The notes under the pieces were generated by a model, which made no database searches, had not been told where the DNA came from, and saw nothing but the letters and a program-made list of their open reading frames with translations. 64,000 nucleotides of DNA from a virus (Duplodnaviria; Heunggongvirae; Uroviricota; Caudoviricetes), in the IMG/VR virus record IMGVR_UViG_3300021387_001267, positions 1-64,000 of that record; one strand, given 5' to 3'. The translations under genes and the position numbers were made by a program. Positions 7,826 through 36,543 of the stretch are shown piece after piece. Numbering within the stretch: position 1 is the first letter of the stretch; every line of letters starts with the position of its first letter.

Positions 7826-7850
7826 GAGGACCTGTAAGTTACAAGTCCTC
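7826..7850 (-). terminator. member of the near-identical terminator family GAGGACCTGTAAGTTACAAGTCCTC
   Basis: Other copies at ~17247-17271, ~19197-19224, ~19603-19629, ~30226-30247. Confidence 0.55.
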
Positions 7851-7857
7851 ATGCTCT

Positions 7858-8142
7858 TTAATAAGAGTCCCATGTTTTATCGAATTCCTCATCGAAGAAT
7901 TTCCAGTTTTTACTCTTCGGAATCCTAAAGTCTCCAAGAAGCATCGGCTGAGCGTAGAGTGCCGCGATTATCAGCCTCTTAGGATTGAACCGATCTATGA
8001 ACTTTGTATGCTGTAATACAAACTTTACAACATCCATATCATAGACATCATGTCCATCCTGCGCAGTTGCATAACCGCTAGTCCAATCTAATTTACTCGG
8101 CGCACGCATCTTCATGCCTTTAGTATTTTGAGTACCCCACAT
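7858..8142 (-). CDS. hypothetical protein
   Basis: ORF track 94 aa; AAGGAGTGAAG SD; terminator hairpin GAGGACCTGTAAGTTACAAGTCCTC immediately downstream. Confidence 0.5.
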   Translation of the reverse strand: MWGTQNTKGMKMRAPSKLDWTSGYATAQDGHDVYDMDVVKFVLQHTKFIDRFNPKRLIIAALYAQPMLLGDFRIPKSKNWKFFDEEFDKTWDSY

Positions 8143-8219
8143 GATTCTTCACTCCTTTAATAAAAATATAGTACTCCATTAAAGGAACTGTAATTATTGC
8201 GATTCTTCTTTCTTTTTAT

Positions 8220-8783
8220 CTAATCATGAAGATCAACAATACAAGCATAGTAATCTTGACTATTTTTAATTGTACTTTTGATAAGTTCATCAAAATTTTC
8301 ATTTTTTGTAAGATGCTTACCATCCCAATGTTCCCGCGCGTATCCGTTACCGTCTATATCAATAAAACAATAACAGTTAATCAGATCGTCGACATTAATG
8401 ATATCTGAAATCTTTGCGCCATCAACATAAAGAAATCCATCTCTAAAGCCAAGAGATGGAAAAAAGGTTTCTTCTATACCGGCAAAACTATAAAATCCAT
8501 GTTTAACGTCATTTGCTATTAATTCTTCAAGAAGATATGAACGAAACAATCTTCCAGCTCTAGGATTGGCGATATAGTAGCCCCATTCATATTTATCTGA
8601 ATTCTTTTTGGTGGACAGCTTAAGCAGTCCGTTATATCTTCCACCGAGTCCATACCAGTCCCATAAGAATGCAGGATATTTACATGGCCTTGTTTCATCA
8701 TCTTCGCAAAATGGACTTAACATCTTACTTATAACAGCATCAGATGGAAATTCTTTTGAAAAAATAACACAACAATAATGCAT
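8220..8783 (-). CDS. hypothetical protein
   Basis: ORF track 187 aa; 1-nt overlap with upstream gene. Confidence 0.5.
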   Translation of the reverse strand: MHYCCVIFSKEFPSDAVISKMLSPFCEDDETRPCKYPAFLWDWYGLGGRYNGLLKLSTKKNSDKYEWGYYIANPRAGRLFRSYLLEELIANDVKHGFYSFAGIEETFFPSLGFRDGFLYVDGAKISDIINVDDLINCYCFIDIDGNGYAREHWDGKHLTKNENFDELIKSTIKNSQDYYACIVDLHD

Positions 8784-9634
8784 TAACTATTCTCCTTCAA
8801 ATACTTCTTAAATTTATTCTCATCTCCGACCGAAATATCATTCTCGAAATCCAGTCCAAACTCCTCAGCTTTTTCGAGAATAGCCTCTGCCAGCTCCTTC
8901 TCATACTTCGGATCGACATAGTTAAAGAATCTGATAGCAGATTTCACGTGCTTCTTGTCCGGCATAGGAAATTTTTTGATCTCAGGAATGCCGTAGAGGC
9001 CTTCATCGGAGTCTTCTGTGTCAGAATGCTCCAAATTCAGCTGATCCATTTTCTGTTCGACCCAGAACCTGCGATACTGTCCCTCAATCTCTGAAATATC
9101 ACGTCCACGAACTGTTTCCTGCATAATGAGCACGTCCCAGATCTTTTCCAGGACTCGCTCCAGAATCATTCGGCTATTCAGATTAATATACTGCTTATCT
9201 CGGTGCTCGGCATACCAATTAAATATCTCAAAGAGATTTCCAGACTTCCAGCTAAACGACCACCAGTCGGCAATCATTTCGAAAATATAAGGCAGTGGGA
9301 TCATGAGAGTCTTATACGGTAGCCCGGCTTCAGGATCATCTTCCATCAGCACCCAATATTGCCAGTGATGCGGATTCTGATGAATGTGATGCAGCCAGGC
9401 ATAGTTAAAGTCCTGTACTACTTTGTAACTACGATTCCCGCCATAGAAATATCTGTCATATGCATCGTACTCCTCGGTCGAATACTTACTCTCATCATGA
9501 TTAAATGACACCATGGCGGTTTCAATTGCAGACTTTTCTTCCTGACTGAGTGCCAGATTATCCAGCATCCAGTGAAGTCCCTTATTTACATTACCGATAT
9601 GCTCGGCCAGATACTGATCGTATGCATAGCTCAT
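8783..9634 (-). CDS. hypothetical protein (His/Trp-rich WLHHIHQNPHHWQYW block)
   Basis: ORF track 283 aa; SD GAGGAAAAC; overlaps neighbours by 1-4 nt. Confidence 0.5.
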   Translation of the reverse strand: MSYAYDQYLAEHIGNVNKGLHWMLDNLALSQEEKSAIETAMVSFNHDESKYSTEEYDAYDRYFYGGNRSYKVVQDFNYAWLHHIHQNPHHWQYWVLMEDDPEAGLPYKTLMIPLPYIFEMIADWWSFSWKSGNLFEIFNWYAEHRDKQYINLNSRMILERVLEKIWDVLIMQETVRGRDISEIEGQYRRFWVEQKMDQLNLEHSDTEDSDEGLYGIPEIKKFPMPDKKHVKSAIRFFNYVDPKYEKELAEAILEKAEEFGLDFENDISVGDENKFKKYLKENS

Positions 9635-10206
9635 TTGTTTTCCTCCTCTTTCTCTGGATTATAATCAAATGGAATACTGTCAAAGTGTCGTCCCGTTTTC
9701 TTGCATTTAGTACTATTAGCCCAACAAAAATTAAAACCACGTGCAGGTGTTAGTCTATAGGATATCCATACTACATCATTATCATCGTCGACATTCGTAA
9801 TGATTCCGATAATACTGCCATCCGTTATAACCTCGTCACCAACATGAAGCTCCTGCGATTCTTTTCTTTTGGTTATCCACGCAAGAGTCTTGTCCATAAT
9901 CTCCAGATGACTATAGCCAAGTATGATGCCTAATACGGAAGGCGTCCCGAAAGCATCCTTCAATTCAGATATTGACATTCCGCCATCCGATCCATCTGTC
10001 GCAATAAGGCGAATAGCCTCATGCATATCCTGAAGCCCTTTATTATATGCTTCATCGATCTTCGCCTGCAAATCCGCCTGTTGTTCTTCTTTTTCCTGAA
10101 GTTTCTTCAGTCTCGCATCGATTTGCGCGTTCGTACTGTTCATATGGCTAGTAAAATTTCCGATTTTTGATCTGAGTTCTTTCCATTCAGCGCTAATATC
10201 ACTCAT
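9631..10206 (-). CDS. hypothetical coiled-coil protein, tandem paralog A
   Basis: ORF track 191 aa; first ~60 aa nearly identical to 10199..10759 (MSDISAEWKELR...); identical upstream DNA. Confidence 0.55.
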   Translation of the reverse strand: MSDISAEWKELRSKIGNFTSHMNSTNAQIDARLKKLQEKEEQQADLQAKIDEAYNKGLQDMHEAIRLIATDGSDGGMSISELKDAFGTPSVLGIILGYSHLEIMDKTLAWITKRKESQELHVGDEVITDGSIIGIITNVDDDNDVVWISYRLTPARGFNFCWANSTKCKKTGRHFDSIPFDYNPEKEEENK

Positions 10207-10759
10207 CTTTATTCCTCCTTATCTCCTCCGCAAATGGAATGGCATCATAGTGTTTACTGGTCTTACGATAATCAACAAAATTATTTGTAAATTCAGCCTT
10301 CATTTTATCGAGATTAAACATTTTCATATGGTATTCATCTCTACCTAAATAAATAAAAGTTTTATCGTAATCCATACTGCATTCGTTAACACATATAATC
10401 TCATCGCCAATGTGAAAATCCTGTTCTTTGGCCTGCTTTTCTTTTTCGGCCTTTAACTGATTTACTTTTTCTATAATTTCTGCCATTGAATGGTCTTTAA
10501 GTATATTAAAATTGTAATATGATCCAAATATTTCTTTCCAGTTTTCATTATCGTAAAGTTGGAGTACAGCGTTTCGAGCATCTTCAAGACCTTTGTTATA
10601 TGCTTTCTCAATCTGTTCCTGTAAATCTGCTTGCCGCTCTTCTTTTTCCTGAAGTTCTTTCAGTTTTGCATCAATGTGGCAATTTTCGCTATCCATACGA
10701 CTAATTAAATTTCCAATTTTCGGTCTGAGTTCTTTCCATTCAGCGCTAATATCACTCAT
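10199..10759 (-). CDS. hypothetical coiled-coil protein, tandem paralog B
   Basis: ORF track 186 aa; see 9631..10206. Confidence 0.55.
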   Translation of the reverse strand: MSDISAEWKELRPKIGNLISRMDSENCHIDAKLKELQEKEERQADLQEQIEKAYNKGLEDARNAVLQLYDNENWKEIFGSYYNFNILKDHSMAEIIEKVNQLKAEKEKQAKEQDFHIGDEIICVNECSMDYDKTFIYLGRDEYHMKMFNLDKMKAEFTNNFVDYRKTSKHYDAIPFAEEIRRNKDE

Positions 10760-10761
10760 CT

Positions 10762-11391
10762 TTATTCCTCCTTAAATCTCAAATAATAACTTTTTGCAAA
10801 GCTCGCGATTGTCTCAGCGCCGAGCTGGCTCGTTCCGTCGTACAAATATCCAATCCGCCTTCCGATGCGATACGGATCGTCAAGCTCTATGATTTCGTTC
10901 CAAAGTCTTTCGTTTCGCATCATGCTCTCAAATATAAACGCACACTGAACCTCAGCATCGGCAATTGACTCTCCGTTTTCCTGCACATAATCATAGAAAT
11001 GCTCAAGATACTGAATATCTGACCATTGTCCAAGTCCAAATCCACCATAGTTAATATTAACTCTCCTGATAAACTCATCTCTCGTGGATCCATCAGCCAG
11101 TCCGGCATCGATCGATTCGACAAACTCGGAACAAATATCCGTTACACCCTTCGCGTGATTTCTCTGAGGCCATCCGGCTATAGCATCGGATCTCATCTGA
11201 CTTTCCCTAAAGAAATATCCCATCACGCCTGCCGTAATCGCATCACTCGGAGAATACTTACTGAGCTCTTCCCAAATAAGCTCTTCGGACCATTCAGCTT
11301 TATACTCCGTCGCGACACTATGAGCAACACATGGCTCCAGGGCAAATATTACGACTAAGAATGCTGCGAGCATTTCTACTAACTTTTTCAT
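10762..11391 (-). CDS. secreted protein of unknown function (signal peptide)
   Basis: ORF track 209 aa; N-terminal MKKLVEMLAAFLVVIFALEPCVAHS looks like a signal peptide. Confidence 0.5.
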   Translation of the reverse strand: MKKLVEMLAAFLVVIFALEPCVAHSVATEYKAEWSEELIWEELSKYSPSDAITAGVMGYFFRESQMRSDAIAGWPQRNHAKGVTDICSEFVESIDAGLADGSTRDEFIRRVNINYGGFGLGQWSDIQYLEHFYDYVQENGESIADAEVQCAFIFESMMRNERLWNEIIELDDPYRIGRRIGYLYDGTSQLGAETIASFAKSYYLRFKEE

Positions 11392-11462
11392 AAGTTATAC
11401 CTCCAAAAATTAAAAGGATCTGCCCACGGTACTATGAGCAGATCCAGTCCTATTAGTTTACT

Positions 11463-11630
11463 TTACCAAATGAACGGTGTATGATCGGTATATTTCTTCA
11501 CGATTTCTTCCAAATTGGCTTTTGTATCCGACTCGTTGATCGCCGTATATACATCCTGAAGTGCTTTGTGTAAATTCTCTTCAGCCTGTCTAAGCCTGCA
11601 CATCGCTTCATTAAATTTCTCGTAGTTCAT
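11463..11630 (-). CDS. small hypothetical protein (55 aa)
   Basis: Not in track; ATG overlaps TGA of 11627..11908 (ATGA); MNYEKFNEAMCRLRQAEENLHKALQDVYTAINESDTKANLEEIVKKYTDHTPFIW. Confidence 0.4.
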   Translation of the reverse strand: MNYEKFNEAMCRLRQAEENLHKALQDVYTAINESDTKANLEEIVKKYTDHTPFIW

Positions 11631-11908
11631 TTCAAACCTTCTTCTTTCTTCAGTTTACTAAGTTCCTTTTCCAGTTCCAGAATCCGCTCCTGCCTCTGAA
11701 TATCACAGCTGATCATTTCAGTTAAAGCGATATTAAACTTTTCAGAGATCTTAACAGCTCTGTCCAGATCGATCGGAGTCTCTCTTCTAAACATGGTCGC
11801 CAAATATCCACGACGAAAACCAAGTTCTTCTTCAAAATCTTGGATTCTGATTCCTTGTTTTTTACAGAAATATTGAGTATTTGAAATAAGGATCTGAGAT
11901 GGAGTCAT
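11627..11908 (-). CDS. HTH (XRE/Cro-like) DNA-binding protein
   Basis: ORF track 11627..11932 with TTG start; moved to ATG (MTPSQ). The 25-aa stretch LGFRRGYLATMFRRETPIDLDRAVK fits an HTH_3-type helix-turn-helix. Confidence 0.55.
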   Translation of the reverse strand: MTPSQILISNTQYFCKKQGIRIQDFEEELGFRRGYLATMFRRETPIDLDRAVKISEKFNIALTEMISCDIQRQERILELEKELSKLKKEEGLK

Positions 11909-11921
11909 AAATAGTCGATTC

Positions 11922-12374
11922 CTACCTTTCAACAGCCATCAAACGAAGGACCTCTTTCTCCAGTGCACGGTTAGTTAATCTACCCACAACCCAGTCGTTC
12001 ATTACATATTGTATGGCCTGTTCTCTATCAGTAAAAAAGTGAATTCCATTTACACACATGAATGGTTGTTCTTCGAAACAATCCGGATAAACAGTTTCTC
12101 CTGGACGATAGCAAAAATTTGGATCGAAAAGCGAATATGCCGAATCTAAGTATTCTTGAGTTACTTTTACAATCGGTTCTAAAAGGCATCTCATGGTGTA
12201 ATCTATTTTATTAATTTTCAGAACCCTGGCGACATTGGATCGATTCGAGCTCTCAAAACTGTAGCATTTTAATCCAGGATAATCTTCAGGGATCTCAAGT
12301 TCGATTAACGCATAACAAAAGCTGAGATCACCATTGTTGTCAATCTCACCTAATCCAATCTTATAACCTTTCAA
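11922..12374 (-). CDS. hypothetical protein (TTG start coupled by TTGA overlap)
   Basis: ORF track 150 aa; TTG start overlaps TGA of 12371..12649. Confidence 0.45.
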   Translation of the reverse strand: MKGYKIGLGEIDNNGDLSFCYALIELEIPEDYPGLKCYSFESSNRSNVARVLKINKIDYTMRCLLEPIVKVTQEYLDSAYSLFDPNFCYRPGETVYPDCFEEQPFMCVNGIHFFTDREQAIQYVMNDWVVGRLTNRALEKEVLRLMAVER

Positions 12375-12649
12375 AAGTCAATTCCTTTCTTTTCAACAAC
12401 CCAGTTTTCATCCCGAAATATCACATCACTGAATGTTCTCTCCTGCACACCAATTCCATGGTACATATATTTACACTTAATAAAATATCCGGTCTCGGCA
12501 GGAGTTACTTCAGTCACCTCCATGCGATCCGGAACGGTCATATTTCTATGCTTACGATAAATGCGGTCGCCAGGTTTAACCTTGCATCTCGGCTTCATGA
12601 ATTCCTCAACGCTGGTTTCATTTGCAGTAACAGTTTTCATTTCGTCCAT
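12371..12649 (-). CDS. hypothetical protein
   Basis: ORF track 92 aa; AAGGAGATAA SD. Confidence 0.5.
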   Translation of the reverse strand: MDEMKTVTANETSVEEFMKPRCKVKPGDRIYRKHRNMTVPDRMEVTEVTPAETGYFIKCKYMYHGIGVQERTFSDVIFRDENWVVEKKGIDF

Positions 12650-12664
12650 GATTTGTTTATCTCC

Positions 12665-13075
12665 TTACTTGTTGATTTGGAATAGGGTGTCGAATAAAAT
12701 GTTGGCCAAGCCTTGCGGCGTTGACGAAAACAGTCCGTTAAAATATAATTGCTGATAACTTCGTTCACCGTGAAACGATTTCACAACGTTACAAAACCAC
12801 TCGGCGAGATCTCTATTAAAGTCTCTCGACATCAGCCATTTCTTGAATGTCTTACGGGACATTTTCTTATTTGGAAGTCTGATATAACCATATATTGTCA
12901 TATCTAATTCTTTTGCCAGGTCGAATCCTACTGTATAGTATTCGTCTACGTTTTCATCTAGACTATACGTTACATTTTCGATGTTTTCAAATTCGATCGG
13001 ATCGCCATAAGTTCCGTCTGGATTAATCGGTCTTAATGTCAGTTTTGAAATACTGTTTTCTTCAAGCGGTCCCAT
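12665..13075 (-). CDS. hypothetical protein
   Basis: ORF track 136 aa; GGAGGAGAGA SD. Confidence 0.5.
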   Translation of the reverse strand: MGPLEENSISKLTLRPINPDGTYGDPIEFENIENVTYSLDENVDEYYTVGFDLAKELDMTIYGYIRLPNKKMSRKTFKKWLMSRDFNRDLAEWFCNVVKSFHGERSYQQLYFNGLFSSTPQGLANILFDTLFQINK

Positions 13076-13280
13076 TATATCTCTCCTCCATCAAAAGTTT
13101 ACGTCTTCCACCCGGCTCTTTGACCCAGAGTTCTTTACGAAAATATACCGGCCCAAGTTCCAGCTTTTTAAATGCTCTTTCGGCAGCCGTTCGATCTGTC
13201 CAACAGTCTTCCCAGAGATCTGAAATATAACCGGTAGGCTCCCCTGGGCAGACTTTCGTGAGTGTAAGTATATAGATCAT
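13062..13280 (-). CDS. hypothetical protein
   Basis: ORF track 13062..13298; start moved to MIYILT with GGGAGGAAG SD. Confidence 0.45.
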   Translation of the reverse strand: MIYILTLTKVCPGEPTGYISDLWEDCWTDRTAAERAFKKLELGPVYFRKELWVKEPGGRRKLLMEERYNGTA

Positions 13281-13522
13281 TTGACATCTTCCTCCCAATA
13301 ATAACTTGGTACACAGCTGTCAGACCTCTCCTGAAATGTAAATCGCTCAGGATGATTCTCAGGGTCCTCACAGGCTCCATACTTTGCGCATTTCGGATCC
13401 ATTGTGTGATTGCAGACCCAATCGGTAGCGCTAACTGGATCCTCACGATAGATGCATCCGGGATGCAAGAAACACGTCATCCCTTCGCCTTTACAAATAT
13501 AAATAATGTCAGGTTTTGTCAT
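13277..13522 (-). CDS. Cys-rich hypothetical protein
   Basis: ORF track 13277..13528; start MTKPD with GGAGGATG SD; 9 Cys. Confidence 0.5.
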   Translation of the reverse strand: MTKPDIIYICKGEGMTCFLHPGCIYREDPVSATDWVCNHTMDPKCAKYGACEDPENHPERFTFQERSDSCVPSYYWEEDVK

Positions 13523-13709
13523 TTTCATCCTCCACTTCTCCAGGACAATTGTCTGATCGTTTCGTTAGTCCATCCTTCGCCAAAATATCAAGCGTTGGTT
13601 CAATGGTGCATCGAAGCTTAAGAGGCCCGTATCCGGATGAGACACGAACCTCTTTAAACGGACATTCAATACAGTTTTCAGGAGTTGGAATTGAAAAGTG
13701 AAAAGTCAT
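13509..13709 (-). CDS. small hypothetical protein
   Basis: ORF track 13509..13760; start moved to MTFHFSI with AGAGGTG SD. Confidence 0.45.
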   Translation of the reverse strand: MTFHFSIPTPENCIECPFKEVRVSSGYGPLKLRCTIEPTLDILAKDGLTKRSDNCPGEVEDENDKT

Positions 13710-13711
13710 AA

Positions 13712-13909
13712 TTACACCTCTGGAAAATTTCCATCGTACAGCGAATACACCACGTGGCATGCAATTCTGACAACCTCATCAGCCGAAATGCTGGTATGCT
13801 TGTCATTTAGCATGTCGATATTACTCTGTTCTTTAAGTACTTCATCAGCATGCTTTCCGCTTTTCATACCAAATATCACGTTTTCAACAAGATGCTCAGC
13901 GTTACTCAT
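13712..13909 (-). CDS. small hypothetical protein
   Basis: ORF track 13712..13921 (TTG); moved to ATG MSNAEHL. Confidence 0.45.
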   Translation of the reverse strand: MSNAEHLVENVIFGMKSGKHADEVLKEQSNIDMLNDKHTSISADEVVRIACHVVYSLYDGNFPEV

Positions 13910-14852: not shown

Positions 14853-14860
14853 ACCATTCC

Positions 14861-16961: not shown

Positions 16962-17017
16962 TTAATTCTCCTCTAAGAGACATTCGTTTAGCCTCCTTAA
17001 AAAAAAAGAAGCCGCTG

Positions 17018-17200
17018 TTAAACGACTTCCTTTTTCCATACTTTTATTATTCTATTACGTTCTGTTAACTCATAAAGTTGTGTATGATCATATAAAGATC
17101 TGTCTTTCTCGTTAATTAGACCTCTTTCAATCATATCGTCCAATGGAGAAAGATAGTTTGTTTTATACAACCGTCCTTCAAATTCATAAATTATATACAT
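17018..17200 (-). CDS. small hypothetical protein
   Basis: ORF track 60 aa; ATGGAGGTGAAG SD inside conserved box. Confidence 0.45.
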   Translation of the reverse strand: MYIIYEFEGRLYKTNYLSPLDDMIERGLINEKDRSLYDHTQLYELTERNRIIKVWKKEVV

Positions 17201-17220
17201 AAATCTTCACCTCCATTAAA

Positions 17221-17271
17221 GGAGCTGTAAAACTTGCGAAAAGTAAGAAGACCTGTAAATTACAAGTCCTC
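17221..17271 (-). promoter_or_regulatory. representative copy of the conserved intergenic module (terminator hairpin GAAGACCTGTAAATTACAAGTCCTC, T-run, box TTTTCGCAAGTTTTACAG, SD hairpin CTCCtttaatGGAGGTG)
   Basis: More than 30 copies across 900-46650; see findings. Confidence 0.6.
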
Positions 17272-17273
17272 TT

Positions 17274-17573: not shown

Positions 17574-17625
17574 GTTTTCTCCTTTCTGAAATATCTTCAT
17601 TAGAGAAGCTGTAATTCTTGCGAAA

Positions 17626-19086: not shown

Positions 19087-19231
19087 TTTATTAAATCCTC
19101 CATTCATTTAATTCATTACGGATCACTTTTTAGTACGGCCCTCTTCATTTCATTCAGAGAGACCGCCTTCGATATGCCTTTTCAGATAAAAAATTTTAGA
19201 GGGCATGTAAGTTACAAGTCCTCTTGTCGGA

Positions 19232-19543: not shown

Positions 19544-19574
19544 TACATTCTCCTTTCTGGAATATCTCCATTAA

Positions 19575-19629
19575 GGAAGCTGTTGAAATTGCGAAAAATT
19601 TTAGAGGACCTGTAAGTTACAGATCCTCT
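19575..19629 (-). promoter_or_regulatory. conserved intergenic module copy (terminator AGAGGACCTGTAAGTTACAGATCCTCT, box TTTTTCGCAATTTCAACAG, CTTCCTTAATGGAG)
   Basis: Same architecture as 17221..17271. Confidence 0.6.
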
Positions 19630-19835: not shown

Positions 19836-19876
19836 TTTTATTCACCTCCTACTAAGGAGGCTGTAATTATTGCGAA

Positions 19877-26115: not shown

Positions 26116-26817
26116 TTACTCCTCCATCGTAATAAACTCCGAATAGGGCAAGCTACGGATCCAGTCACAATACTGATGCCACTCATCGAGCTTGTGGTTT
26201 TTCCTCTGCCGATATTGCGCCGCCAGAACTTCATAGTTCAGATCGATGGTCCTCTTCTGGTTATAGGAACTCGGAAGCAGCTGGATCATCTGGTACCAGT
26301 AGACTTTGTCTCTGGTTTTCAGAAAAGCTTCTCTTGCAGCGTTCATCATTTCAATCTGAATTTTCAGACTGTCATACGGTCTTAGTTTTCCATCTTCAAA
26401 ATCCTTCGAACTAATCCAAAGTTCGTGCGGCATATCTACTGCCGGAATCAAATGTTCACACGAAAAATCATCCAGCGTAAATTCCTTCGCCTGAATCTTA
26501 TGCATTGTGGAGCAGCTGTTCGAGACCGTTGCAATTTTGTAAGTTTCAAACTCTTTCCACCAATAAAGAGGCGCCGTCACATCCATTTGGACATGAACCA
26601 TGCGCCTCCATTTTGCTTCCTCGGTTCCTCCCTTGCAGAGATTCATGAGGAGTTTATGATCATTAGGGCCGATGTATGCCGATCCTCTGTGGCAAGACAT
26701 TCCTTCGTCATCGCACCAAAAATCAGTATCAGACTTTTCTCGACTGTTCATTGGATTTCTGCAGCCAAGTATAGCCATTCTCCATCCGAAAACTTCAGTA
26801 TTCTCGATTTTAATCAT
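26116..26817 (-). CDS. divergent ThyX-like (thymidylate synthase complementing protein fold) protein without canonical RHR motif
   Basis: ORF track 233 aa. Blocks VHVQMDVTAPLYWW and KIATVSNS resemble, from memory, the Thermotoga ThyX segments FHVKAPIFVARQW and RIASYNELS. The RHR-x7-S catalytic motif itself is absent. Confidence 0.35.
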   Translation of the reverse strand: MIKIENTEVFGWRMAILGCRNPMNSREKSDTDFWCDDEGMSCHRGSAYIGPNDHKLLMNLCKGGTEEAKWRRMVHVQMDVTAPLYWWKEFETYKIATVSNSCSTMHKIQAKEFTLDDFSCEHLIPAVDMPHELWISSKDFEDGKLRPYDSLKIQIEMMNAAREAFLKTRDKVYWYQMIQLLPSSYNQKRTIDLNYEVLAAQYRQRKNHKLDEWHQYCDWIRSLPYSEFITMEE

Positions 26818-28784: not shown

Positions 28785-28824
28785 TCAATTTTCCTTTCAA
28801 AAATATAAATAGGCCGCTGATTAT

Positions 28825-29055
28825 TCAACGACCTCTTTCCTCGACATTAAAACGATAATGATCATATAGATCTTCGTACGGTTTTGCATTAGCTCTGAGA
28901 TGTTCATTCAAACGGTCTGCGAATATGTTAGCATCGCTTCGATTGCGAAATACTTTAACAATTTCACAAAGATTGCTGTGCCAGCCAATATCCTGTCCGT
29001 TGCTGTCCTCATCTCGATACCAATGCTTTTTGACTACTACGTATGCTTTCATCAT
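28825..29055 (-). CDS. hypothetical protein
   Basis: ORF track 76 aa; GGAGGCGAAAATG SD. Confidence 0.5.
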   Translation of the reverse strand: MMKAYVVVKKHWYRDEDSNGQDIGWHSNLCEIVKVFRNRSDANIFADRLNEHLRANAKPYEDLYDHYRFNVEERGR

Positions 29056-29096
29056 TTTCGCCTCCTTCTATTAAGAAGGCTGTAATTATTGCGATC

Positions 29097-30199: not shown

Positions 30200-30254
30200 A
30201 TATTCTCCTTTCAAAAAATATAAAAGAGCCTGCGAATTACAAGCTCCTTTATGC

Positions 30255-30554: not shown

Positions 30555-30598
30555 AAACATTACCTCCATAATTTAATAATCTTCTATTATGGAAGTTG

Positions 30599-30955
30599 TT
30601 AATTTTGCGATCCTAATTCTTCTTCTGTTTCCTGCTGTGCCAACATATTATTATCACTGACATCGCAGTTTTCCAAAATACTCCAGAGTTCCGGTGCGAG
30701 CTTTGACTTCTTATTATTCTGCACAAGCTCGTTGATCTGCCCTCTTAGCATCAGATACTTTGTTTTCCAATAGCTCTTAGCGCTGTCTGTTCGGATATGA
30801 GGCATCGTGAGATCAAATATCATACGATACTCTTCTTCCGAAAGACCGAATCGGCGCTTGATTATACCAACAGTTTTTGATGGATTCTTCAGAATATAAT
30901 CCATGACAGCATTTATAGTTTTAATTTCATCAGGATCGAGAAGTGTCAGATTCAT
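30599..30955 (-). CDS. hypothetical protein
   Basis: ORF track 118 aa. Confidence 0.5.
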   Translation of the reverse strand: MNLTLLDPDEIKTINAVMDYILKNPSKTVGIIKRRFGLSEEEYRMIFDLTMPHIRTDSAKSYWKTKYLMLRGQINELVQNNKKSKLAPELWSILENCDVSDNNMLAQQETEEELGSQN

Positions 30956-30966
30956 GTTACGTCTCC

Positions 30967-32082
30967 TTAAATCGTCCGAATGGTGATACAGACTTCCACC
31001 AGCTTATCCTTGCACATGATCTTCATACCTTCCAGCTCGTCAGAATCAAGACCAATAGATCTGTAATTGGAAGTAAAGACCATCGTATGGTGGTTTGTTT
31101 CCTCAAGTTTCGGAGCCTCGGGTTCTTCAGGAATAAGATCAATGAAACCATCCTCAACAGGAATATAAAAGTCAGAAATATTGCTCTCCGGAAGTTCACC
31201 GCTCTTAGGCTTCTCCTCGGGTATTTTGGCCTCGATGCTTTTAGCGGATGGAGTCTCTTCTGCAGGATTCTCCTCCCCGATAATAGCTTTAGGTTCTTCC
31301 TTGGGTTGCTCTAGTACAGTTTCTTCCAAAGTAGATTCTCCTCTCCAATTTTTAAGAGCATCACAAAAATCTTTGTTCGCCTTCGCGGCATTGAACCCGC
31401 TCTTTCCACGCTTGATCTGCTTAAGAACTCCTGCCGCATCCAGTTTGCGTCTGAGATTGGTGGCGGGAAGCTCAAAGAGTTCTCTTTCGATAGCGGCAAA
31501 AGATACTCCATACTTATCGATGAGCGAATTCAGATAGAGAACCTTCTCATCTGTCGTGAAATTGGAGAATTCTTCGAAACTAATAAACTCAGCATCATCA
31601 ATAATATTACGCTTTCGCTGAGCTTCGGAGAGATCAATAATCTTAGCAGTCTTTTCTCGTTCGCGCCAAATCTCGATTAAATCGTGAAAGTCCTTAATGT
31701 CATCGTCGGTCACATCTAAGGCGTTAATTTTTACGATTTTCTTGTCAACGCCCTTGATCTTGAGCCGGGCCATTAGATCACGTTCGCCAAGCTCAAAGAG
31801 ATACTTACTCACCTGCTCGTGCCGGACGTGATACTTTTTGCAAAGATTATTCACATATTCGGCTTCGAGATCGGGATCCATCTTCTTGAATGTCTCATAA
31901 TCCATGAATCCACCAAGATCATATTCCTTGCACTCGCCATGCTTACGGTTGATCTCCTGCCAACTCATCGGCTTATTCCCAAGTTTCGAAACAGCCGATC
32001 CACCCTTTTTGTGATGCACACCATAGCCGGCTACCTTTCTCTCGCGATTGGTTTGTTTGAGCACCTGAGCAGCTTCGTTCAT
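30967..32082 (-). CDS. hypothetical protein with internally duplicated ~55-aa domain and acidic/Pro-rich C-terminal half
   Basis: ORF track 371 aa; two repeats (F..F....D.E..Y.N.L..KY.V.....LFEL....L...L...GV) at roughly aa 60-115 and 165-220. Confidence 0.5.
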   Translation of the reverse strand: MNEAAQVLKQTNRERKVAGYGVHHKKGGSAVSKLGNKPMSWQEINRKHGECKEYDLGGFMDYETFKKMDPDLEAEYVNNLCKKYHVRHEQVSKYLFELGERDLMARLKIKGVDKKIVKINALDVTDDDIKDFHDLIEIWREREKTAKIIDLSEAQRKRNIIDDAEFISFEEFSNFTTDEKVLYLNSLIDKYGVSFAAIERELFELPATNLRRKLDAAGVLKQIKRGKSGFNAAKANKDFCDALKNWRGESTLEETVLEQPKEEPKAIIGEENPAEETPSAKSIEAKIPEEKPKSGELPESNISDFYIPVEDGFIDLIPEEPEAPKLEETNHHTMVFTSNYRSIGLDSDELEGMKIMCKDKLVEVCITIRTI

Positions 32083-32127
32083 TAATTCCGTTCTCCTTTT
32101 ATTAAATTTTTAAAAATCAGTCGTCTA

Positions 32128-32292
32128 TTACTTGTCTTTCTTATCTTTGGTATCGGTATCCGTCTCATCGTCTCGACTCATGAGATAATATAATCTCTCA
32201 AGAGTCAGGCCGAGAGAACCGGCAATTGCCTGATCGCTCATTCCTCTCAGATGCTGCTGATTTACAAATGCGTTCAAGTCTGTTGTTTTCAT
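32128..32292 (-). CDS. small HTH protein (paralog of 19877..20191)
   Basis: ORF track 32128..32334; start MKTTDL with TAGGAGGAAAC SD; RGMSDQAIAGSLGLTLERL HTH. Confidence 0.45.
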   Translation of the reverse strand: MKTTDLNAFVNQQHLRGMSDQAIAGSLGLTLERLYYLMSRDDETDTDTKDKKDK

Positions 32293-32340
32293 TTTTTGTT
32301 TCCTCCTAAATATAGTTTGTATATTGCTGTGCACCGTACG

Positions 32341-32526
32341 TTAGAACTCCTTTGCATCAAAGTGCGAAATATAATCGGAAATCAATGTCCGTACAGTCTG
32401 CGAGATGGACAGCCCAGTAACTTCGCTGATTGATTTCAGCTTGGTATAGTCATCTTCGCTGAGCCGAAGTCGAAATGCCGACTCAAATTTTCCAGTACCT
32501 TTAGGTCTTCCGCGTTTATTTTTCAT
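32341..32526 (-). CDS. ribbon-helix-helix (Arc/CopG-like) DNA-binding protein
   Basis: ORF track 32341..32535 (TTG); moved to ATG MKNKRGRPKG. Basic N-arm followed by RLSEDDYTKLKSISEVTGLSISQTVRTLI fits a beta-strand-helix-helix fold. Divergent from the plus-strand gene. Confidence 0.55.
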   Translation of the reverse strand: MKNKRGRPKGTGKFESAFRLRLSEDDYTKLKSISEVTGLSISQTVRTLISDYISHFDAKEF

Positions 32527-32563
32527 ATATACCAACCTTCTTTTTAAATTTATTTTGAATTAA

Positions 32564-32592
32564 TTGCACAGATGAAAGATTTCTGTTAGAAT
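32564..32592 (+). promoter_or_regulatory. sigma-70-type promoter: -35 TTGCAC, 17-bp spacer, -10 TAGAAT
   Basis: Read directly from sequence; lies 15 bp upstream of the SD/ATG of the only plus-strand gene. Confidence 0.6.
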
Positions 32593-32607
32593 AGAAAATG
32601 CGAGGTG

Positions 32608-32832
32608 ATGAGAGTGTTCTACAGTGTTTTTGCTTTTCCGGATGATGCGCAGGACACGAATATGGACTTTGATGGCGATAGCTACATAGCAACCTGGACT
32701 GGTTCCGATGGTAAGCACCATTGCGAAATCCTGGATCCGGAAGAAGTAGAGACCGTCGAATGGCAAAATGCGCAATTGCCCGACGATGCTCTACAGTACT
32801 ATTCCGATGACGGCTGTTATTATCACGACTGA
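32608..32832 (+). CDS. acidic hypothetical protein, the only plus-strand gene in the window (start may be the GTG at 32614)
   Basis: ORF track 32605..32832; GAGGTGA SD; canonical promoter upstream; hairpin plus T-run terminator at ~32836-32883 downstream. Confidence 0.55.
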   Translation: MRVFYSVFAFPDDAQDTNMDFDGDSYIATWTGSDGKHHCEILDPEEVETVEWQNAQLPDDALQYYSDDGCYYHD

Positions 32833-32835
32833 AAA

Positions 32836-32883
32836 ACAAAAGAGAGACTGCTCGTAATTGAGTCAGTCCCTCTTTTTATTGTT
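32836..32883. terminator. bidirectional hairpin terminator (AGAGAGACTG...CAGTCCCTCT plus TTTTT), shared by the convergent 32608..32832 (+) and 32892..33152 (-) genes
   Basis: Inverted repeat with flanking A/T runs; near-identical copy at ~33631-33672. Confidence 0.55.
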
Positions 32884-32891
32884 GAAGAAGA

Positions 32892-33152
32892 TTACAACGC
32901 GCTCCAATTCATTGGCATCTGTCCTGTAATCTCCAGCGGGTTCAGGCCGAAATGGTCGGCGATCTTACGGACAAGATTCGCAGACGGGAGTCTCTTGCCC
33001 AGTTCATATGCACTCATGGTCGGCTGGTCAATACCAACCTTCTTCCCAAAAGCCTCCTGGGAGTATCCCATCTGTACTCTCATTCCGTACAGATTCCGAC
33101 CGGTTTTCCGATCAATAACCAGAACCTCGTTGTTGTACTTTGACATAGACAT
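32892..33152 (-). CDS. XRE/Cro-CI family HTH transcriptional regulator
   Basis: ORF track 86 aa; LYGMRVQMGYSQEAFGKKVGIDQPTMSAYELGKRLPSANLVRKIADHFGLNPLEI is a classic HTH_3 pattern. Confidence 0.65.
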   Translation of the reverse strand: MSMSKYNNEVLVIDRKTGRNLYGMRVQMGYSQEAFGKKVGIDQPTMSAYELGKRLPSANLVRKIADHFGLNPLEITGQMPMNWSAL

Positions 33153-33242
33153 AATAAATACCTCCTATAATGAATTAATAAAGTTCTTTCTTCTTCACTA
33201 TAGGAGGTGCAATTTTTGTGATTCTGTTATTTAATCAAGCAA

Positions 33243-33560
33243 TTATAGTCCGGCAAAATATACGTACAAAAACAGCAGTATAAATCCGATAGCGCATCCG
33301 ATTAGGATTCTGGAACGAACTTTATCCATACGGGCGTTCTCTTTTTGCCGGTGTTCCAGGCGCATTCTTTCAAGCTCGACGGATGCCTGCGCTTTAGCAA
33401 TTTCAGCCTCGTTGACATATCGGTTCGTAATCTCTTTTCGTTCAATGCCGTCATCCAAAAGAATTTTGGTACCGCAATAGGAACAGAAAATCTGTTCGCG
33501 TCCATCGTTGACATCGAGTGCAGCACCACATTCCGGGCATTTGACTTCGTAAGCTTTCAT
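33243..33560 (-). CDS. zinc-ribbon protein with C-terminal TM anchor
   Basis: ORF track 105 aa; CPECG...CSYCG then coiled coil then ILIGCAIGFILLFLYVYFAGL. Confidence 0.5.
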   Translation of the reverse strand: MKAYEVKCPECGAALDVNDGREQIFCSYCGTKILLDDGIERKEITNRYVNEAEIAKAQASVELERMRLEHRQKENARMDKVRSRILIGCAIGFILLFLYVYFAGL

Positions 33561-33681
33561 TTTGATTCGTTCTGCCTCCTTTCTTTAAGCTCAATTTTAA
33601 CATGACTTTTTCGTATCTGCAACATCAATGATAAAACAAAAGAGAAACTGCTCGTAATTTGAACAGTTTCTCAATGTGGTT

Positions 33682-33864
33682 TCATGTCGTAGATTCTTCG
33701 TGTCCTCGTGCCGCCCGGATAATGGCAATTACGATCAGCGAAACCGTCGTGCTGATCAGGTGGGTCAGAACAGCCCGAACAACGGACCGCCCAATCACCC
33801 GAGGCATCGGCTTCAGATAATGATCATATGTGCTTTTTCCAATAATAGCAAGAGTATTTTTCAT
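33682..33864 (-). CDS. small membrane protein (60 aa)
   Basis: ORF track 33682..33924; start MKNTLAIIG with AAGGAGGAT SD. Confidence 0.45.
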   Translation of the reverse strand: MKNTLAIIGKSTYDHYLKPMPRVIGRSVVRAVLTHLISTTVSLIVIAIIRAARGHEESTT

Positions 33865-33974
33865 GATAGAATCCTCCTTAATAATATTATTCCCATTATA
33901 TGAAATGCAGTTTTTGTGATTCATTTAATACAGGAATAACAGAAGCAGACTGTAATAGCCTGCTTCCATTGTAC

Positions 33975-34343
33975 TTACTTGAGAAGCCCCATGTCTGCGA
34001 GTACTTCGCCGCGGGATTCACCGTTCTTTACTCGGTGTTCAATCTCCAGAAGTTCCCTGCTGGTGAGCTCTCTGCGAAGCTTCCACCAGTGTCCCTCTAC
34101 AGGATCCCACATCTCGGTCTTCCGGTGATTATCGTCAGCCCGTCTTGCGCGTCTCTTGCTGGCCATCTTTACAACTTCGACGGCCGCAGGGACCGCAACA
34201 GATCCAACCGCGATAACAGTTTCCTTGTTTTCCTTAATGATCTCCCATTTTTCGGAACACCAGGCTTTCGCATCTGCCCAGGTCTCCTTCAGAGTTCTCT
34301 TTCTGGGATTTCCATTCTCATCCACATAAACAACGTTACCCAT
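33975..34343 (-). CDS. hypothetical protein
   Basis: ORF track 122 aa; AAAGGAGAC SD. Confidence 0.5.
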   Translation of the reverse strand: MGNVVYVDENGNPRKRTLKETWADAKAWCSEKWEIIKENKETVIAVGSVAVPAAVEVVKMASKRRARRADDNHRKTEMWDPVEGHWWKLRRELTSRELLEIEHRVKNGESRGEVLADMGLLK

Positions 34344-34455
34344 TTTTAAAGTCTCCTTTCAGATATAAATATTTGATTTCCCATTAAATGCATTGCAGTT
34401 TTTGTGAAAAAAAGAAAGCGACTGTAGAAGCCGCCTTCTTCGAGGAGTAGAGGGA

Positions 34456-34746
34456 TTAATTATCGTTATTCTTTTCTTTCCTATACTCGCGGAGTCCAAA
34501 CTGTATGGTATCAATAAGTATTGCCAGGCCAACTCCGCAGCACCCAACGCTGAGCATCGTGCGCCATTCGGATCCGTACCACCATTGTAGATACTCGGAA
34601 TAGGAAAATCCGAAATGACCCCAAATTTTGTCATACCATTCGGATAATCCAAATCCGTAATAAATTCCAAGAAATACGGCTTCGATCGCAATAATTACAG
34701 CAGTAATCTGCAGTTTTTCCTTTACGTTCTTCATGATGTTTTCCAT
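34456..34746 (-). CDS. membrane protein (3 predicted TM)
   Basis: ORF track 96 aa; AAAGGAGATAAT SD. Confidence 0.5.
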   Translation of the reverse strand: MENIMKNVKEKLQITAVIIAIEAVFLGIYYGFGLSEWYDKIWGHFGFSYSEYLQWWYGSEWRTMLSVGCCGVGLAILIDTIQFGLREYRKEKNNDN

Positions 34747-34875
34747 TGTATTATCTCCTTTTCTAGTAAGTTTTAGATCTTATTTTGATCCATTCTCCTC
34801 ACTATAAAAGGTGTAATTTTTGTGAGACAAAAAAAATAATAGCTGTTAAAATAGAGAAAATGTACTATTTTTCAT

Positions 34876-35007
34876 TTACTCTTCGTCCGGGCTGTGTAGC
34901 TCTCGACAATCATCATTCCCTGCAGTGGCCTTAACCCCCGTCGAAATATCTGATTTCGGAGTCCTAGCTCCGTTCCGGCTACGAATTTCTATTATTTCAT
35001 AATTCAT
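34876..35007 (-). CDS. tiny hypothetical protein (43 aa)
   Basis: ORF track 34876..35067; start MNYEIIEI. Confidence 0.25.
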   Translation of the reverse strand: MNYEIIEIRSRNGARTPKSDISTGVKATAGNDDCRELHSPDEE

Positions 35008-35063
35008 TCTCTCTCCAATATATAAATTGCAGATTCTGTGAAAAAAGAAAGCCCGTGTAAATA

Positions 35064-35279
35064 TCACGAGCTTTTGCAGATATCTTCTGGCGGTTTTATT
35101 CCGTATTTTGCGTATACAAGTTCCAAAAGAGATGTCATATCATCCGGTGTATAGCCTTGCGTCTTTATGCCAATTGCCGAAAGCCTGATCAACATATCAG
35201 GTGCTTTAACTGCCATATCGTTCATCCACTCGCAAAACTCATCTGCCAGGGCGTTCATTTTGGTTTTTGTAATTGCCAT
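35064..35279 (-). CDS. hypothetical protein
   Basis: ORF track 71 aa; AAAGGAGGTTTTAAAT SD. Confidence 0.5.
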   Translation of the reverse strand: MAITKTKMNALADEFCEWMNDMAVKAPDMLIRLSAIGIKTQGYTPDDMTSLLELVYAKYGIKPPEDICKSS

Positions 35280-35350
35280 ATTTAAAACCTCCTTTTTGTT
35301 TCTATTATAAAGAATGCAAAAATTGCGAAAAAAAAAAGAAAGACCGGTTA

Positions 35351-35623
35351 TTAAGCCGGCCCTCTTTCAATTCCGTATGTGTATATATAACCGTTTTTAT
35401 CTTCTTTGCTCGGCGTGTACCACTCGAAAATATTATTAGTATAATAAACTGGAGGAAATGGCGTCTCAACTCTATAAACGTTTTTAATAAATGTAATTGC
35501 CATCTTTATAGAGTCAAAGGATCCACAATATTCGCTATCAGAAAATAATAGTATTCCGGTAGTTTCGCCTTCTTCAAAGTATACTTTATAGCGTAATCTT
35601 TTTACAATATACACATATATCAT
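35351..35623 (-). CDS. hypothetical protein (start may be the GTG at 35614)
   Basis: ORF track 35351..35641 (GTG); ATG abuts the AAGGAG SD, whereas the GTG 9 nt further on has ideal spacing. Confidence 0.45.
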   Translation of the reverse strand: MIYVYIVKRLRYKVYFEEGETTGILLFSDSEYCGSFDSIKMAITFIKNVYRVETPFPPVYYTNNIFEWYTPSKEDKNGYIYTYGIERGPA

Positions 35624-35704
35624 CTCCTTTCCATTAAGCACCTTGTAAAATCGGTGAAAAAAGAAGCGACTGTAAAAGCCGCCTTCTTCTGATCCGTAAG
35701 TGGA

Positions 35705-36067
35705 TCACGCTTTCTTCAGGAAAAACTCCACCGTGGTTCCATTGTTGAGTTCTGCCGAGAAATTGTACTCAGGTCCGATAAAGAACCGTTTAATCGGCGT
35801 CATAAGCGGCCGGTTCTTCTTCCAGCGATCATTGATACGATCGATATACGGCTGAGTGAGGGCCCGAATATAAGTAACGTACTCGCCGTTCATGTCGTCC
35901 CCATCATCTGGGCCATCATAATTGGCATTCCATTTCTCATAATTCGGATTCACAGCATCGCAGTACTCGTTGTATACCCGCATGAAATCTCTTTCGGTCG
36001 CTGACTTGAACAGCGGATTCGGTTCCTTTCCATTGTACCTGAATTCAACATAATAGGTATCGCTCAT
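35705..36067 (-). CDS. hypothetical protein
   Basis: ORF track 120 aa; AAGGAGGTAAC SD. Confidence 0.5.
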   Translation of the reverse strand: MSDTYYVEFRYNGKEPNPLFKSATERDFMRVYNEYCDAVNPNYEKWNANYDGPDDGDDMNGEYVTYIRALTQPYIDRINDRWKKNRPLMTPIKRFFIGPEYNFSAELNNGTTVEFFLKKA

Positions 36068-36135
36068 TTTTGTTACCTCCTTAAAAATATAGTTTTTCCA
36101 CTAAATGCAGTGTAAATTTTGTGATTCTAATAAAA

Positions 36136-36156
36136 AGAGACCCATTGCAGGTCTCT
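36136..36156 (-). terminator. terminator hairpin AGAGACCCATTGCAGGTCTCT (identical copy at ~36503-36523)
   Basis: Perfect 8-bp stem with A-run / T-run flanks. Confidence 0.55.
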
Positions 36157-36441
36157 TTATAGATACGCTGGAATAAGTATTGGTATGTCATCCATCATAT
36201 CGCACTTTCCAAACACAGTCCATCCTTCAATGAAATCTCGTGCGTCGGCCTCCGGTATGTCGAACTCATATGCAACAAATTCCGAGGGATATGTTTCTCC
36301 GGTTTTTAGATTTACAGCAGTCGTATGCATATACGTCTTTACCGATTTTTGTCCCGTCGGAAGCATAAGGTCGTTCGAGCCATATAGCTTCACAAAATGC
36401 TCATGGTAGGCTGTGCGATGATGCAGAATTCTGAATATCAT
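36157..36441 (-). CDS. hypothetical protein
   Basis: ORF track 36157..36447; start MIFRIL with AAGGAGGAT SD; terminator AGAGACCCATTGCAGGTCTCT directly downstream. Confidence 0.5.
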   Translation of the reverse strand: MIFRILHHRTAYHEHFVKLYGSNDLMLPTGQKSVKTYMHTTAVNLKTGETYPSEFVAYEFDIPEADARDFIEGWTVFGKCDMMDDIPILIPAYL

Positions 36442-36543
36442 TACCATATCCTCCTTATAGTTTCTTCACTATACGAAGTGCAATTCATGCGATTGCGTAA
36501 AAAGAGACCCATTGCAGGTCTCTAAAGCGCTTACTTTATCGAA

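Follow-up and report, generated by a model that had tools for sequence, protein, structure and literature searches.

The 64,000-nucleotide (nt) stretch of IMG/VR virus record IMGVR_UViG_3300021387_001267 analysed here, hereafter the window, carries a long array of small open reading frames (ORFs) punctuated by composite intergenic units, in which a hairpin and a T-run are followed by a conserved, promoter-like box of 29 nt. In the current study these units were characterised and compared with those of related genomes, and we consider it probable that they are terminator-promoter signals which split transcription into cassettes and, at the same time, sites at which such cassettes have been gained, lost and swapped.

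The phage is a temperate-type, Oengusvirus-like siphophage of rumen Clostridia, and the contigs identical to the window (L018, L021 and L103) originate from sheep-rumen assemblies. Its genes, essentially all of which are placed on the minus strand by guanine-cytosine (GC) skew and ORFs, follow the order tape measure, tail, endolysin, holin, integrase, an attP candidate resembling a transfer RNA (tRNA) 3' end, small ORFs and three DUF6353 genes. This order matches that of Faecalibacterium phage FP_oengus, in which DNA polymerase, single-strand annealing protein, helicase, exonuclease, putative RNA polymerase and structural genes lie beyond DUF6353. No near-identical cultured phage was found by megablast, the best protein-level match being 47.6%.

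The small ORFs form a hyperplastic cassette region (3532-42600, minus strand) of ~100 genes, mostly ORFans, bounded at its upstream end by the tyrosine integrase (42910-43962, minus strand) and at its downstream end by the DUF6353 genes (995-3531, minus strand), which are syntenic with FP_oengus gp15, gp18 and gp22. Almost none of the gene calls in the three identical contigs had a Pfam match. The region spans ~38 kb in the window as against ~4.5 kb in FP_oengus, and across it we count ~50 intergenic signals, namely ~39 terminators and 34 boxes, with 21 composites of both. The stretch 4000-47000 differs from its flanks in GC content, with 38-42% for the cassette region as opposed to 47-49% for the structural genes and the left end. 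The tRNA-3'-end-like sequence (…GGGTTCGACTCC…CCGCTCCA), a candidate attP core, lies directly 3' of the integrase at 42685-42734 on the minus strand; ARAGORN found no complete tRNA in the window, and Rfam at gathering thresholds returned 0 matches over it.

Terminators and boxes at the gene borders

A first-pass annotation of the window had described near-identical terminators, and the sites that it named are real, although their positions were off by 0-8 nt and the non-coding strand had been read. On the coding (minus) strand the motifs consist of a hairpin and then a T-run, at or just 3' of stop codons, which is the anatomy of intrinsic terminators, and we expect them to be functional as such. 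Between 24 and 44 kb, 30 terminator-like sites were found as compared to 13.2 ± 3.7 in shuffled sequence, most of them on the minus (coding) strand.

Roughly 16 of the ~39 terminators belong to small families. Family A comprises five copies (minus-strand hairpins 7852, 17273, 19225, 19629 and 30252), all of which had been thought to share one core. Four do so, with the 19-mer CTGTAAGTTACAAGTCCTC, absent from 100 shuffles, present at 7832 (0 mismatches), 17253 (1), 19205 (1) and 19610 (2), while the fifth site, at ~30220-30252, has diverged to 68% identity over 37 nt and has more than 3 mismatches to the 19-mer. Two of the five form units with a box (17211-17273 and 19566-19629, the latter with a stop codon in its loop), that at 19197-19225 has an imperfect stem, and the remaining ones are the terminator at 7824-7852 and the diverged copy at 30220-30252. 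The family A core recurs, identical, in unrelated contexts of the relatives L001, L002, L003, L016 and L017; in an alignment of 10 related copies only, 86% of cells in its hairpin were paired, which was better than every slid control, and 5 of 13 pairs showed changes on both sides.

Families B and C had likewise been recognised as pairs. The first consists of exact duplicates of AGAGACCCATTGCAGGTCTCT at 36136 and 36503 (minus-strand hairpins 36156 and 36523), and the second of copies of AAAACAAAAGAGARACTGCTCGTAATT at 32833 and 33633 (hairpins 32876 and 33672; terminators 32838-32876 and 33642-33672), previously placed at 32836 and 33631. Two copies make up family D (hairpins 34441 and 35689) and a ACTAGCTTAACAGCTAGT-type family (38689 and 39463), and three a TTAACAGCGGCT-type family (6669, 17037 and 37186), all on the minus strand; the latter includes the terminators GGAGCTAGCTTAACAGCGGCTCC at 6641-6669 and GTCGTTTAACAGCGGC, with a TAA stop in its loop, at 17000-17037. 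The ORFs flanking terminators of the same family had been described as unrelated, and no paralogues were indeed found among them, and duplicated genes were accordingly rejected as the source of the shared terminators. The family C terminator at 32838-32876 is bidirectional and stands between a plus-strand ORF (32605-32832, a gene call in L018, one of the identical contigs) and a convergent gene encoding a Cro/CI-type helix-turn-helix (HTH) protein (32892-33152, minus strand); the convergent pair with this terminator between may be a regulatory switch.

About 10 of ~38 terminators have the stop codon within their hairpin loop, as in GCT-TAA-CAGC. Examples are found at 39452-39454, 38675-38677, 17018-17020, 37169-37171 and 19617-19619, and in such terminators the 5' arm is a coding part of the upstream ORF. 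A ribosome stopping at the in-loop stop codon would mask the 3' arm and might in this way link translation to termination.

Part of the likeness between terminators is a conserved apex under functional constraint and not only recent recombination. The loops GCTGTTAAGC and CTGTAAAAG, whose recurrence had been pointed out earlier, are the reverse complements of GCTTAACAGC and CTTTTACAG and reflect a real bias, as 79 of the 341 hairpins that precede boxes have ACA on the 3' side of their loop, whereas 7 of 341 have it at the mirror position; among control terminators, 2 of 152 have it. The apex takes the form T-[WAC]-A, a (T)WAC loop closed by a T-A pair, and is common to the window phage and distant phages of Streptomyces, Lactococcus and Faecalibacterium, examples being GCTTAACAGC in the window and CCCTTAACAAGGG in Streptomyces phage HotFries.

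While terminator families thus exist, an all-against-all repeat search revealed that the dominant repeat of the region is not a terminator but a promoter-like box of ~30 nt adjoining terminators, which in coding orientation reads TCRCAAnAATTRCAnnnnnTATAATGGAG. That a box accompanies the terminators had been seen before, and its family proved to be larger: a weight matrix trained on the boxes of the window detected 34 copies on the coding strand and 0 on the other, compared to 0.1 expected from shuffles. All copies lie between 895 and 46592, with none among the structural/tail and lysis genes at 47-64 kb, and boxes are usually located 5-50 nt upstream of start codons; some were flagged as lying inside genes because the simple gene calls made in this analysis gave wrong start codons. 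Across all sequences gathered, 460 distinct copies were obtained, and over 129 distinct copies three conserved blocks are apparent: T1 C2 R3 Y4 A5, T11 R12 C13 A14 and T20 w T22 A23 A24 T25 R26 G27. In 30% of 362 boxes a ribosome-binding site begins at box positions 26-33. A stem-loop within the box (positions 16-19 pairing with 26-29) was considered and rejected, since pairing was as frequent as expected from shuffles and no covariation was detected. We regard the box as a putative promoter.

Terminator, T-run and box come together in the 21 composite units of 60-140 nt, and with boxes and terminators at its gene borders the region is divided into short cassettes, each leading from a box through a ribosome-binding site and ORF(s) to a terminator; the cassettes are densest at 33-41 kb. 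Apart from the family members given above and the signals associated with breakpoints described below, the following were located on the minus strand, boxes by the weight-matrix scan and terminators by hairpin folds and the scan for terminator-like sites. Upstream of the integrase lie a unit of a hairpin (apex ATTTACAG), T-run and box at 46564-46649, a second unit at 46459-46518 in which a hairpin resembling a tRNA T-arm (GCGGGTTCGATGCCCGT, 46502-46518) precedes a T-run and a box (46459-46487), and a terminator hairpin with T-run at 46228-46285, while two strong terminator hairpins (42584-42680) are found downstream of integrase and attP. Within the dense part of the array, units of terminator and box occur at 39406-39463 (terminator ACTAGCTTAACAGCTAGT, with a TAA stop in the loop), 38311-38371, 37715-37773 (apex CTACAAC), 37396-37465, 36782-36844, 35300-35368 and 33891-33972 (apex ATTACAG), together with a unit at 34797-34860 in which a weak, AT-rich hairpin precedes the T-run and box. 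A terminator with a stop codon in its loop is located at 40648-40666, a box with no clear terminator at 39835-39863, and the HTH gene mentioned above is preceded by a box at 33193-33221. Further downstream, boxes were detected at 29066-29094, 19847-19875, 17595-17623, 8174-8202, 6038-6066, 4797-4825 and, among the DUF6353 genes, 895-923; terminators at 11416-11445, 7320-7341 (GAAGCTTAACGGCTTC), 5246-5285, 4067-4098 and 344-377; and units of terminator and box at 5521-5583 (apex CATACAG) and 4518-4588.

Two tandem pairs of paralogous segments, each of ~80% identity, were also noted in the window, one (54854-55153 and 55987-56286) within LRR_5/DUF6273 genes of the tail region and the other (10027-10221 and 10580-10774) within the genes 9631-10206 and 10199-10759.

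Cassette differences between related genomes

Mosaic relatives obtained from IMG/VR cover ~8-31 kb of the window (L001-L004 and L012) or ~29-48 kb (L014-L017), and the closest of them, L014 and L015, are 86-98% identical to it at the nucleotide level. The first-pass annotation had suggested that cassettes are gained, lost and shuffled at the units and had proposed a search of related genomes for insertions and deletions bounded by the repeats. Such differences were found, and the suggestion withstood the comparison: relative to L014 and L015, nucleotide breakpoints of insertions, deletions and replacements fall in the terminator (including its loop), in the T-run, in the gap between T-run and box, in the 5' half of the box and exactly at its 3' edge, the exceptions being one replacement inside a gene and the 4.4-kb deletion described below.

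The cassette at 36157-36492 (box, 96-amino-acid (aa) ORF and terminator) lies between two identical 26-nt copies of AGAGACCTGCAATGGGTCTCTTTTTA, and in both L014 and L015 it is absent and a single copy of AGAGACCTGCAATGGGTCTCTTTTTA is kept. Its upstream boundary is the unit at 36464-36523, composed of the family B terminator AGAGACCTGCAATGGGTCTCT, a T-run and a box, its ORF occupies 36157-36447, and its downstream boundary is the second, identical family B terminator with box at 36096-36156. The two relatives also lack the cassette 36813-37150 downstream of the unit at 37101-37186 (terminator GCGCTGCTGACAGCGGC and box), and at the unit at 35629-35689, which carries the family D terminator GAAGGCGGCTTTTACAGTCGCTTC, their breakpoints are located within the T-run and within the 5' half of the box. 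With respect to L014, the ORF downstream of the unit at 40954-41091 (long hairpin, T-rich stretch and box) is replaced exactly after the box, homology resumes in the terminator loop of the terminator-box unit at 39005-39065, and a breakpoint falls between T-run and box of the unit at 38630-38689 (terminator GCTAGTTTAAACAGCTAG and box). In L015 the ORF downstream of the unit of terminator and box at 35013-35074 is replaced directly after the box, and a 707-nt cassette is inserted at 34407, in the 5' part of the box belonging to the unit at 34379-34441 with the second family D terminator; a further breakpoint lies inside the box at 30582-30610, which overlaps the stop codon of the upstream gene, and homology resumes just upstream of the terminator at 28807-28838. 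The flanking homologies overlap by 12-24 nt within the 5' half of the box and by 12-70 nt inside unit sequence at several junctions, and the replacement segments of the relatives bring units of their own, such as the L014 boxes at 4931 and 5266.

Unit junctions are broken in L014 in 12 of 23 cases as compared to 0 of 9 plain junctions (Fisher p = 0.012), all 12 of its gene-adjacency breaks being at junctions with a terminator and/or box, and for L014 and L015 together the figures are 24 of 40 and 5 of 20 (p = 0.014); these and the following p-values are indicative only, because the loci compared are related to one another. The junction statistics identify the units as preferred, though not sole, sites of change. 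As neighbouring ORFs are unrelated and cassettes are missing or replaced with breakpoints at the units, the shuffling of cassettes is supported.

The mechanism that we propose is that the hairpin and T-run would stop transcription and the box would restart it, every cassette being equipped with a start signal of its own, a ribosome-binding site, an ORF and a stop signal. Being repeated at a large number of gene borders, these short conserved sequences would offer stretches of homology and places where a break does no harm; there, entire cassettes could be inserted, deleted or replaced, and the 25-70 nt common to the units would be enough for homologous or annealing-type recombination. Because cassettes carry their own signals and share the homology of the units, they could be excised, inserted or exchanged without harm to their neighbours. 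Some near-identical terminators, such as the pair at 36136 and 36503, would represent recent footprints, the unit travelling with the cassette or being duplicated by it. The recombination would be homology-driven and may employ a phage single-strand annealing protein, of which FP_oengus and Lactococcus phage 1706 each have an annotated example, and the units would cause recombination rather than mark breakpoints that are tolerated.

Several points weigh against this reading, and some of them favour another one, according to which the units are transcription signals only and illegitimate recombination takes place anywhere, survivors being those that keep genes and signals so that breakpoints pile up passively at the units. 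The functions of promoter and terminator are predicted from sequence, and the loci compared are mutually related. For L015 alone the enrichment is weak (12 of 17 unit junctions broken versus 5 of 11 plain ones, p = 0.25); with the distant relatives pooled, nine loci in all and not independent of one another, synteny breaks at 82% of unit junctions and at 52% of plain ones too; and counted per junction over any locus the enrichment is not significant (35 of 39 versus 46 of 61, p = 0.12). A 4.4-kb deletion in L015 (window 37549-41973; L015 4693-4702), the left breakpoint of which is at the terminator hairpin 41975-42012, used a microhomology of 10 nt, GGGCTTTATT, common to a terminator tail and a site inside the gene 37471-37683. 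Furthermore, some replacements exchange only the ORF between a kept box and a kept T-run; their breakpoints coincide with the T-run and precisely with the 3' edge of the box, a pattern compatible with purifying selection on the signals no less than with recombination inside them. Against passive accumulation stand the collapse of the perfect 26-nt direct repeat around 36157-36492 to one copy in L014 and L015, the homology overlaps of 12-70 nt inside unit sequence and the confinement of breaks in L014 to unit junctions, and we consider this explanation unlikely, albeit one to be taken seriously.

An integron-like process, in which the adjacent tyrosine recombinase would insert promoterless cassettes at attC-like hairpins, appears extremely improbable, in spite of the resemblance of a one-directional array of small ORFs headed by a tyrosine recombinase, with a hairpin after each. 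Against the integron-integrase model TIGR02249 the integrase scored 26.7 bits, the cut-off being 265, and it adjoins the tRNA-3'-like attP candidate. The hairpins are 20-40 nt long with T-runs and in this are unlike attC sites, which measure ~57-141 nt, and the integron was rejected on integrase score and hairpin anatomy. In addition, the breakpoints vary between loop, T-run and the 5' and 3' edges of the box with no fixed crossover point, most cassettes have a box of their own, and L015 is without an integrase and yet retains the cassette architecture. Around position 4102, L015 lacks the counterpart of window 42555-43949, comprising exactly the integrase, a 54-aa ORF and the attP-like sequence, none of which has been substituted by other sequence. 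L015 may represent a (lytic?) derivative of this type of phage that has no integrase.

The box and a putative phage RNA polymerase

The box extends far beyond this phage, as a pattern scan detected it in many IMG/VR contigs, of 33-52% GC, and invariably in one orientation per locus. Two box-bearing loci, L081 and L085, encode a protein of 919-925 aa with the motif GADFDGD and a sigma-region-4-like HTH at both ends, which has a weak match to the two-barrel RdRP family. This protein corresponds to the 'HTH protein / putative RNA polymerase' that is a signature gene of an actinophage supercluster and of the Lactococcus 1706/FP_oengus group (10.1101/842583). The gene was found in 250 cultured phages, and its profile had no sequence match among solved structures. 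Of the loci fetched by means of this gene, which are among the matches listed in collection scans, 62 of 178 carry the box on the strand of the gene and 1 on the opposite strand, versus 0 of 65 control loci with a box on the coding strand (p = 2e-10, the loci not being independent).

Box counts in distant phages are underestimates, because the matrix was trained on the window; nevertheless, 10 copies on the coding strand and 0 on the other were obtained for FP_oengus (RCGCGAAAAATRCAGnnTCCTTTATGGAA), 6 and 0 for HotFries, of 60% GC (TCGCAnGTTTTnCnnnnnTATARTGAGAcccctac), and 9 and 0 for Lactococcus phage 1706 (yCACAwGTTTTACAnnnnCTATAGTAGAA), while Arthrobacter phage GantcherGoblin had none on either strand at the thresholds used. 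Genes of the window are also linked to the polymerase gene. L085 encodes the polymerase alongside homologues of three genes of the window (66%, 52% and 47% identity), among them the 233-aa gene 26116-26817 (47%), homologues of which, at 43-57% identity, are situated 3.5-5.5 kb upstream of the polymerase in L215, L245, L254, L268 and L279.

Neither tblastn nor scans for the DxDGD motif revealed a polymerase homologue in the 64-kb window and the fetched parts of its close relatives; synteny with FP_oengus would place the gene ~15-25 kb past the window's left end. Walking yielded no contigs extending past that end, and in three scans of viral collections the relatives of the window were not among the matches listed. 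A scan with a DUF6353 protein retrieved distant phages only, yet these carry boxes, and a scan of genome contigs with a 332-aa protein retrieved only distant, high-GC homologues in Oscillospiraceae metagenome-assembled genomes, which served only as controls because none carries the box. Homologues of the 132-aa ORF 29097-29495 in L002 (1278-1562) and L003 (2028-2249) resemble polymerase residues ~568-642 (E ~5e-6), which lie just after the catalytic motif, and ORFs of this type may be free-standing polymerase fragments or decoys.

In FP_oengus (L313 2909-3006) a tRNA-like gene, reported by ARAGORN as 'tRNA-???', starts at box position 27. This unit and another in L097 (224-340), for which ARAGORN made no call, both extend from box position 26/27 to a T-run immediately ahead of the following box; they are cassettes with a structured RNA in place of an ORF. 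The positions at which ribosome-binding sites and tRNA-like genes start suggest that transcription would begin at approximately G26/G27 of the box, which is too close to 'TATAAT' for that element to be a -10 element, from which a start would be expected ~7 nt after T25.

Our tentative interpretation, which we put forward at slightly less than even confidence, is that the box and the T-[WAC]-A hairpin are the promoter and terminator signals of the two-barrel RNA polymerase of ~920 aa, in which case a phage-encoded enzyme, and not host sigma-A, would read the boxes. A phage polymerase is favoured over sigma-A, and what probability remains is assigned to another phage-encoded factor.

That the box is an ordinary early promoter for host sigma-A, and the unit a strict counterpart of the promoter-early stem-loops (PeSLs) read by host RNA polymerase in T4-like phages, is in our estimation the less likely of these two readings and rather doubtful in itself. 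Box positions 20-25 are TATAAT in most copies, TTTTCA stands 16 nt upstream where a T-run precedes the box, and the boxes front presumed early genes, before any early-encoded phage enzyme could exist. On the other hand, there is no conserved -35 element and the TCRYA and TRCA blocks are at a spacing other than that of sigma-70, only 59% of copies have A at the '-11' position, the corresponding block in FP_oengus reads CTTTATGG, and sigma-70-type matches are not enriched in the region. The ribosome-binding sites that begin at box positions 26-33 and the tRNA-like gene of FP_oengus would both put the start too near 'TATAAT', and nearly the same 29-nt motif is present in phages of Streptomyces (60% GC), Lactococcus and Faecalibacterium. 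There is, in our view, only a slight chance that the boxes are operators or 'stoperators' of a phage repressor which silence the prophage, as in mycobacteriophage L5. The phage does possess an integrase and a Cro/CI-type HTH gene, and the sites are asymmetric, one-directional and mostly intergenic; however, the box is also present in 1706 and HotFries, with no integrase annotated in the genome parts examined, and it is fixed just after terminators and just before ribosome-binding sites or tRNA-like genes, and is 29 nt long with three conserved blocks. Phage 1706 is, moreover, reportedly virulent according to its describers.

If the boxes are indeed read by the phage polymerase, transcription would begin at G26/G27, directly after 'TATAAT', and the TCRYA, TRCA and TATAATG blocks, approximately one helical turn apart, would offer contacts to both HTH domains and to the catalytic core. 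The polymerase gene being the last before the late genes and the boxes preceding early ones, the enzyme might enter the cell together with the virion. In the window, the cassette region would represent a 38-kb expansion of the early regulon of the polymerase.

Relation to known systems

The closest known system is that of the PeSLs of T4-like phages (Arbiol et al. 2010, PMC2839356; Comeau et al. 2014, PMC4122927), which follows the same logic and is supported by the same kind of evidence. PeSLs too are composite terminator/promoter motifs of ~100 nt in hyperplastic regions and stand mostly before ORFans, and close relatives differ there too by the insertion, deletion or replacement of motif-flanked ORFs, with one motif left where a cassette is missing. 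In contrast, the units described here belong to a siphophage of a Gram-positive host and not to a T4-like myophage, their hairpin, T-run and box are in fixed order as opposed to the five variable arrangements of PeSLs, and the box does not match the sigma-70 consensus (-35, -10 and AT-rich upstream region) to which PeSL promoters conform; because of the sigma-70 promoter criterion and the phage type they are not PeSLs in the strict sense. Box and apex are, in addition, conserved across phages of different bacterial phyla.

Long, conserved, one-directional motifs before early genes are likewise found in phages with a polymerase of their own, such as Thermus phage P23-45, which encodes a two-barrel RNA polymerase (PMC10770324), and T7-like phages with their promoter arrays, and P23-45 also has a class of terminators with conserved sequence (PMC10770324). 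The enzyme considered here differs in being of another polymerase family, with ~920 aa, an HTH at both ends and putative activity, and the start sites are deduced and no polymerase gene is visible in the window. The 3' part of the box, CTATA(A/G)TGAGA, resembles the TATA-plus-initiation region of T7-type promoters. The host-takeover module of Bacillus phage SPO1 is reported (Stewart et al. 1998) to consist of a cluster of many small early genes, each with a strong promoter and a terminator, the promoters being canonical sigma-A ones, and cassette exchange at these units is not known to have been described. The likeness to integrons is limited to a one-directional array of small ORFs, a hairpin after each, beside a tyrosine recombinase; an IntI-type integrase and attC sites with fixed crossover are both missing.

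With regard to the group defined by the signature gene (10.1101/842583), the window has the gene order of FP_oengus and the box occurs in members of the group. Promoters, terminators and intergenic motifs receive 0 mentions in the account of Koert et al. (10.1101/842583), the box and the terminator apex are not described in the limited literature searched on this phage group, and the link between the putative polymerase group and conserved signals is new here.

The shuffling of genes by portable terminator-promoter units was previously documented in T4-like phages of Gram-negative hosts. Its occurrence in a siphophage of gut and rumen Clostridia, with breakpoints resolved to the nucleotide, suggests that it is a general route to the build-up and turnover of large accessory gene sets. 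The box and the apex, if read as we tentatively propose, would provide a putative phage RNA polymerase that is widespread with its first concrete promoter and terminator candidates, and may find use in better annotation of early regions in gut viromes and, possibly, as an orthogonal transcription system for Gram-positive bacteria.

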